Origin: Escherichia coli
GTDB taxonomy: Bacteria; Pseudomonadota; Gammaproteobacteria; Enterobacterales; Enterobacteriaceae
Reading direction: 5' to 3' (one strand)
Assembly (NCBI RefSeq): GCF_003334385.1
Contig: NZ_QOWN01000020.1
Length of the DNA stretch: 64,000 nucleotides
Part shown: positions 6,714-6,777 of the stretch, piece after piece
Numbering within the stretch: the first letter of the stretch is position 1
How the letters are laid out: every line of letters begins with the position of its first letter
Program-made: the position numbers and the translations under genes
The notes under the pieces: model-generated
What the model saw: the letters and a program-made list of their open reading frames with translations, nothing else
Told to the model about the DNA's origin: nothing
Databases searched by the model: none

Positions 6714-6777
6714 ATACAAAAAATGGGACGGCACGCACCGTCCCATTTACGAGACAGACACTGGGAGTAAATAAAGT

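Follow-up and report, generated by a model that had tools for sequence, protein, structure and literature searches.

The window that we analyzed, a 64,000-nucleotide stretch of Escherichia coli DNA, contains the ilvGMEDA operon. On the basis of translation and annotation, ilvM was placed at 5501..5764, ilvE at 5784..6713 on the plus strand (309 amino acids, with a TAA stop codon at 6711..6713), and ilvA at 8631..10175; both ilvE and ilvD (6778..8628) are annotated in K-12 and in strain SCU-104. The ilvG gene (3858..5504) is an intact reading frame of 548 amino acids, whereas in K-12 it is a frameshifted pseudogene, and transcript data from K-12 may therefore misrepresent the operon of this strain. 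Beyond ilvA, the ilvY gene (10227..11120) lies on the minus strand. The ilvG and ilvM genes overlap, ilvM and ilvE are separated by 19 nt, and ilvD and ilvA are separated by 2 nt. The 64-nt spacer between ilvE and ilvD (6714..6777) is the sole sizeable untranslated gap of the operon. The 901 bp around the spacer were 100% identical to those of SCU-104 and were matched in 5425 of 5426 complete E. coli genomes. Elsewhere in the window, an intact PemK/MazF-family toxin gene is annotated in the identical strain SCU-104 between ppiC and rep (about 13271..13720).

The sequence-only reading had described a perfect 10-bp stem in the spacer at 6722..6747, and the description was exact: the element reads AATGGGACGG-CACGCA-CCGTCCCATT. 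One further A-T pair lengthens the stem to 11 bp (6721..6748) and leaves a loop of 6 nt. Read along the plus strand from the ilvE stop codon, the spacer consists of an A-rich linker that reaches the base of the stem (ATACAAA, 6714..6720), the 5' arm of the hairpin (AAATGGGACGG, 6721..6731), the CACGCA loop (6732..6737), the 3' arm (CCGTCCCATTT, 6738..6748), an unstructured linker (ACGAGACAGACACT, 6749..6762), and the ilvD Shine-Dalgarno sequence (GGGAG, 6763..6767), which is followed by the ilvD start codon (ATG, 6778..6780). The arms were assigned via the fold and covariation, and the loop was assigned from the sequence. A run of six A nucleotides spans 6718..6723, and the final three of these are paired in the stem. 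The unstructured linker holds a GACAGAC block (6753..6759) that was kept across unrelated hairpin families. We also observed that a longer block, CAGAC-N(0-4)-(G)GGAGT (6753..6768 in the window), which leads from the hairpin toward the ilvD start, was conserved where the hairpin sequences were unrelated; this block may represent a longer form of the ribosome-binding region or a site of cleavage.

The predicted folding energy of the hairpin RNA was about -19 kcal/mol on either strand, with z-scores of -4.8 for the plus strand and -3.6 for the minus strand, and none of 200 shuffled sequences folded as well. The hairpin was both the lowest-energy structure and the centroid structure in the 64-nt and 91-nt contexts. 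A search of the 64-kb window for perfect hairpins of at least 10 bp yielded 13 hits at 7 loci, and 0.62 hits were expected based on dinucleotide shuffles.

The two strands of the hairpin have different tails, as the sequence-only reading had claimed. The plus-strand sequence after the stem is ACGAGACAGAC, which contains no T-run. On the minus strand, the sequence after the 10-bp stem reads TTTTGTATTTA, and a loop-closing G-U pair yields a stem of 12 pairs (6 of them G-C) with a 4-nt loop and the tail TTTGTATTTA. The U-rich tail of the minus strand (UUUUUUGUAUUUA, 6711..6723), in which the first three U nucleotides are paired in the stem, has the form U6-G-UAUUUA; this is the anatomy of an intrinsic terminator. 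When the region from 3000 to 11500 was scanned for consensus terminators, the minus-strand hairpin ranked first, and no plus-strand site was found at the hairpin. The candidates were also compared using a d'Aubenton-Carafa-type d-score, which serves for relative comparison only: the minus strand of the ilvE-ilvD hairpin scored +6 to +44, the plus strand (tail AUUUACGAG) scored -10 to -58, the terminator after rho (20950) scored +13 to +16, a hairpin at 39871 scored +23, and a hairpin distal to ilvA (10267) scored -0.9. Only the minus strand scored like the clear-cut terminators of the window, which are located after rho and at 39871. Thus, the d-scores and the terminator scan confirmed the earlier observation in full, and the intrinsic-terminator look of this element in E. 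coli is limited to the antisense strand.

Other perfect hairpins were found in the window. The hairpin after rho (20950..20977) has a perfect 12-bp stem that begins 16 nt after the rho stop codon and T-runs on both strands (d-scores of +16 and +13), which gives it the look of a bidirectional terminator. Four more perfect hairpins of at least 10 bp were located at 33973..33996, 39871..39900, 54592..54623, and 55709..55733; among these four, only the one at 39871 (plus strand) scored as a clear terminator.

The spacer proved to be highly conserved within E. coli. Identity over a 111-nt region around it was 99% or higher in 5332 of 5423 E. coli genomes, and the surrounding 901 bp reached this level in just 480 of 5425. 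The hairpin region occurred at a median of one place per genome. Strains S1-INA-02-B and A29 each carry a single base change in the loop relative to the window (S1-INA-02-B has further differences at position 6777 and in one ilvD codon), and the loop is the only part of the hairpin in which these two variant genomes differ. A divergent allele was found in ECOR29, where a U-A pair of the stem was changed to a G-U pair. All 25 of the listed E. coli records, which were evenly spaced, contain the A-run, as does E. albertii.

To follow the element across lineages, we collected relatives in two ways: named genomes were scanned with IlvD, and metagenomes were scanned with a DNA pattern for ilvD starts. 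The ilvE gene was located upstream in 118 of the 120 metagenome loci with an ilvD start, and these loci contained 88 distinct spacers. Among the distinct short spacers from Enterobacterales genomes and metagenomes that were scored, 75 of 78 contained a G+C-rich stem of at least 7 pairs, and the median folding z-score was -2.5 (79 distinct short spacers). The position of the stem was fixed within narrow limits. The median distance from the ilvE stop codon to the start of its G+C-rich core was 11 nt (78 distinct spacers), and that from the end of the core to the ilvD ATG was 29 nt, with the latter distance falling between 23 and 33 nt in 77 of the 78. The sequences of the stems were not fixed, as unrelated hairpin families such as GGGACGG/CCGTCCC, ACGCGGGCGC/GTGCCCGCGT, and CAGGCGG/CCGCCTG were found. 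In an alignment of 41 E. coli-like spacers (A2), 89% of the cells were paired and changes on both sides were observed in 7 of 11 pairs. None of 500 shuffled controls reached the observed values, alignments with slid partners were 33 to 52% paired, and RNAalifold independently recovered the core of the stem.

The hairpin was not found in every lineage. Vibrio spacers are 0 to 34 nt long and are without the hairpin, and the spacers of other gammaproteobacteria (Aeromonas, Shewanella, and Cognaticolwellia) are 115 to 270 nt long and contain several hairpins. A long ERIC/IRU-like palindrome was found in place of the hairpin in Citrobacter werkmanii-like loci, and this replacement is compatible with the idea that any stable structure serves. 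The element, which is presumably ERIC as judged from the consensus, is about 125 nt long, contains the core sequences CCCAGGAGCTTAC and GTAAGTGACTGGG, and fills the ilvE-ilvD spacer. It was observed in loci L005 (spacer at about 2340..2500), L082, L103, L126, L166, L181, L187, L189, and L198, and in loci L141 and L119 it was located beside a retained hairpin.

The tails that give a hairpin the look of a terminator did not follow the conservation of the stem. Among the 79 distinct spacers, terminator-like scores were obtained for the plus strand in 8 and for the minus strand in 13, and 59 had no such score on either strand. The holders of a minus-strand U-tract were Escherichia, Superficieibacter, and a few other lineages. 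Plus-strand T-runs after the hairpin were found in loci L196 (ATTTTTTTA) and L136 (TTTTGCTGTTATTT), in Photorhabdus (TTTGTTTTG), and in ECOR29 (TTTTATTAG). As judged from these scores, terminator U-tracts are not conserved on either strand, and their scarcity argues that termination is not the conserved function of the hairpin.

A perfect palindrome hides the strand on which it is selected, and we therefore used its imperfect relatives to tell the strands apart. A G:T pair on the plus strand corresponds to a G-U pair in the sense RNA only, and an A:C pair corresponds to a G-U pair in the antisense RNA only. The count was restricted to the interior of the stem because the loop-closing C:A of the CACGCA loop confounds a simple count of pairs. 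In 57 distinct hairpins, 30 internal wobbles were G:T and 7 were A:C; these counts are not phylogenetically independent, but many separate events contribute to them, in hairpin families that are unrelated. The core pairs of the A2 alignment contained 8 G-U pairs and no A-C pairs. Moreover, several close relatives with A-rich upstream flanks (L128 and L200) and the ECOR29 allele carry sense-only pairs, which on the minus strand read as A-C mismatches. This preponderance of G-U over A-C suggests that the structure under selection is a hairpin in the sense mRNA, and we consider it very probable that this is the case. The use of such an excess to identify the selected strand of a perfect palindrome has some methodological value.

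Published data on RNA ends and RNA decay were examined for signs of the hairpin. The sequence-only reading had proposed 3'-end mapping on both strands as a check. In the curated K-12 Term-seq lists, which cover growth in LB at two densities and in M63 glucose (PMC7815308), no 3' end was found on either strand in the interval 3953000-3953999, which includes the hairpin (K-12 positions 3953421..3953448). The ends listed there for this part of the chromosome were those of the ilvL attenuator (3950400/3950406) and others located in ilvY and next to ilvC. The same study reported minus-strand Rho-dependent regions antisense to ilvA (K-12 position 3956067, about 9367 in the window) and antisense to ilvG (3951509, about 4809), which points to weak antisense transcription on both sides of the hairpin. 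This low-level antisense transcription across the operon could possibly be read-through from ilvY. In a study of differential decay (PMC5927463), ilvE-ilvD-ilvA was among the 390 operons analyzed and was not excluded for an internal terminator motif; apart from the list of analyzed operons, neither ilvE nor ilvD was found in any of the supplementary tables examined, including those of differentially decaying pairs. Among the Salmonella TIER-seq tables of RNase E sites examined, the only one to name an ilv gene of this operon has sites solely in the 5' untranslated regions of ilvG and ilvE, and none of the files examined has an entry for ilvD. The Term-seq and decay data sets came from K-12 derivatives, which have a frameshifted ilvG and only modest expression of ilv, and thresholds were applied in both, such that a weak end may have been missed. 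Thus, the negative results weaken the idea of a boundary at the hairpin without refuting it, and they lower our confidence in every mechanistic reading, a boundary included.

A different hairpin in the window touches on the same Term-seq data. A perfect 12-bp hairpin at 12761..12787, located between the convergent genes ilvC (which ends at 12745) and ppiC (which ends at 12791), has no U-tract on either strand. If the offset between the window and K-12 holds, then the minus-strand Term-seq end at 3959467 would fall inside this hairpin, and it would show that hairpins that lack a U-tract can yield mapped ends in this data set.

We considered whether the ilvE-ilvD hairpin belongs to a known class of elements. 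A REP or BIME repeat was ruled out because the hairpin is single copy in each E. coli genome, and its sequence does not resemble the REP consensus. In a search of 3000..11000 against Rfam, the only match with an E value of 1 or less was the ilv leader (RF02744, 3546..3838), and there was none at the hairpin. An RNase III site was rejected because the 11-bp stem is too short; RNase III needs an RNA duplex of at least about 20 bp. A protein-binding palindrome is unlikely because the arms change completely between lineages yet stay complementary. A role in insulating the ilvD ribosome-binding site was rejected on the basis that deletion or shuffling of the hairpin had no modeled effect in 70 natural contexts. 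The hairpin also cannot be the terminator of the mechanically predicted minus-strand open reading frame at 6703..7038 because that reading frame runs through it. The text "ilvE-ilvD" in PMC11750901 is the name of a plasmid only.

Two mechanistic possibilities had been raised by the sequence-only reading, namely a stability or processing element inside the operon and a terminator of antisense transcription. The second would stop minus-strand transcription coming out of ilvD, for example ilvY read-through that had passed Rho or an unannotated antisense RNA, and would thereby shield ilvGME. Its anatomy is right in E. coli: the hairpin is the top terminator-like site in 3000..11500 (12 pairs, 6 of them G-C, U6 and then GUAUUUA), its minus-strand d-scores are comparable to those of the rho and 39871 hairpins and above that of the 10267 hairpin, and the A-run that supplies the U-tract was present in every E. 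coli record listed and in E. albertii. Low-level minus-strand transcription is also present, as indicated by the Rho-dependent region antisense to ilvA (PMC7815308). However, the U-tract was found in only 13 of the 79 distinct spacers, the internal wobbles favor the sense strand by 30 to 7, and the stem changes in L128, L200, and ECOR29 break pairs on the minus strand. The K-12 Term-seq lists contain no minus-strand 3' end at the hairpin, and the Rho-dependent region at K-12 3951509 indicates that antisense RNA exists downstream of the hairpin too. In addition, no promoter match of at least 9/12 was found on the minus strand of ilvD, where the best matches were 8/12. We therefore regard an antisense terminator as an unlikely primary function. 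One of these 8/12 matches is a weak sigma-70-like sequence, TTGGGT-18-GATAAT (6912..6883 on the minus strand), 135 nt upstream of the hairpin; an RNA that started there would cover the ilvD ribosome-binding site and have its 3' end at the hairpin, and no Term-seq 3' end supports such an RNA. Termination in the other direction appears somewhat less likely again. A leaky sense terminator or pause site after ilvE could set the level of ilvGME above that of ilvDA, with its strength tuned by the U content downstream, and the clear plus-strand T-runs in L196, L136, Photorhabdus, and ECOR29, the positive plus-strand d-scores in 8 of the 79 spacers, and the placement of the core about 10 nt past the stop codon, just clear of the stretch that a terminating ribosome covers, are all in keeping with this idea. 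The E. coli tail (AUUUACGAG) with its negative d-scores, the 59 of 79 spacers that have no terminator-like tail on either strand, and the K-12 Term-seq lists, which have no plus-strand 3' end at the hairpin, all argue against it.

The remaining alternatives have still lower probabilities. A role at the level of translation would uncouple the initiation of ilvD from ilvE, with the stem either blocking the scanning of post-termination ribosomes or insulating the ilvD ribosome-binding site from the sequence before it. The narrow range of distances between the hairpin and the ATG (23 to 33 nt) across unrelated hairpins is consistent with such a role, as is the location of the spacer, which parts two translationally coupled blocks (ilvG/M/E and ilvD/A), but fixed distances may simply come from a short spacer. 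Furthermore, the modeled accessibility of the region from the Shine-Dalgarno sequence to the AUG hardly depended on the hairpin (0.472 for native spacers, 0.467 after deletion, and 0.462 after shuffling; n = 70, P = 0.08 to 0.2), and we give this role little credence. It is just as improbable that the hairpin is a nearly neutral relic of a former ilvE terminator, dating back to an arrangement in which ilvGME and ilvDA formed separate units. The long spacers of Aeromonas, Shewanella, and Cognaticolwellia with their several hairpins and the eroded look of the U-tracts in many lineages are in line with a relic, but compensatory changes maintain the pairing, the sequences turn over fully while the position stays, and within E. 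coli the flanking coding DNA is less well conserved than the spacer.

As for a stability or processing element, the conservation of the structure, the covariation, and the sense-only wobbles all favored it, and what counted against it was that the site had neither a Term-seq end nor a decay flag. The Vibrio species, which manage with very short spacers and no hairpin, are a further point against it.

On balance, our tentative preference is for an ordinary stability or processing boundary, in which the hairpin serves as a barrier to exonucleases or as a decay boundary between ilvGME and ilvDA. The comparisons demonstrated that the hairpin exists, that its pairing is selected, that the sense strand is the one involved, that its position is fixed, and that no U-tract is conserved with it. 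A post-transcriptional boundary fits best with a conserved stem and position, no need for a U-tract, and replaceability by an ERIC/IRU-like element, and a barrier or processing mechanism is the most likely one that we infer from these properties.

In the proposed mechanism, RNA polymerase would read into ilvD, as there would be no working sense terminator in E. coli. The G+C-rich stem would then block 3'-to-5' exonucleases, such as PNPase and RNase II, that gain entry when ilvDA is cut, and it would thereby protect ilvGME. If RNase E cuts in the A/U-rich linker, the stem may also serve as a 5' cap for ilvDA. In this way, ilvGME and ilvDA could decay independently of each other. The hairpin lies upstream of the next ribosome-binding site, and its core starts about 10 nt past the stop codon. 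A terminating ribosome would have its footprint end just short of this start. The shape of an antisense terminator is regarded as a secondary trait that Escherichia and a few relatives have via the upstream A-run. There is a slight chance, smaller than that of any of the alternatives above, of a dual use in which the ancient sense boundary stem-loop was also made into a one-way antisense terminator in Escherichia. In that event, the hairpin might end a candidate cis-antisense RNA, about 150 nt long, that would start from the weak promoter-like site at 6912..6883 and extend over the ilvD ribosome-binding site, or it might serve to catch ilvY or antisense read-through that Rho had failed to stop.

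If ilvGME and ilvDA do have separate lifetimes, then the hairpin would give an operon that is a textbook case of control by attenuation a further, post-transcriptional layer, and it would be worth keeping or removing deliberately when strains are engineered for valine or isoleucine production. No Rfam family or paper describing the hairpin was found in the literature covered. The E. coli ilv sequence has been public since the 1980s, and the dyad was probably noticed at that time. As far as we checked, what is new, although unsurprising, is how widely the hairpin is conserved, its covariation, and the asymmetry between the strands.

The ilvE-ilvD hairpin can be compared with several known systems. 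It shares with intrinsic and bidirectional terminators a minus strand that has a G+C-rich stem, a short loop, and U6, and it has an A-run on one side with T nucleotides on the other. It differs from them because it is located between co-directional genes of one operon, its sense strand is without a usable U-tract, its antisense U-tract is not conserved, and no 3' ends were mapped at the hairpin in the K-12 Term-seq data. The ribosome-controlled terminator of mccA-mccB (PMC4231749) is likewise a hairpin a few nucleotides past an upstream stop codon, at the edge of the terminating ribosome. However, the mcc element terminates sense transcription and yields an abundant short RNA, and the ilv hairpin lacks a sense U-tract.

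Further parallels are found among the protective structures, of which malE-malF, papBA, and others were summarized in PMC5927463. In the case of the 5' protective hairpin of papB-papA, an RNase E cut upstream of the hairpin stabilizes the downstream cistron. Like the ilvE-ilvD spacer, this intercistronic region has an A/U-rich single-stranded stretch 5' of a stable hairpin and before the next ribosome-binding site, but the Salmonella TIER-seq sites for the ilv operon are located only in the ilvG and ilvE 5' untranslated regions. The 3' protective stem-loops, a class for which the term selective RNA processing and stabilization is also used, include the E. coli malE-malF REP element and the Rhodobacter puf and Clostridium cip-cel structures. 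The ilvE-ilvD site differs from these systems in being unflagged in the K-12 Term-seq and decay tables (PMC7815308 and PMC5927463), and it differs from malE-malF in that it is single copy and not a REP element. It resembles them in having a stable G+C-rich stem-loop just past an intra-operon stop codon, in having no need for a U-tract, in the conservation of its structure, and in the ability of other palindromes, here an ERIC/IRU-like element, to substitute for it.
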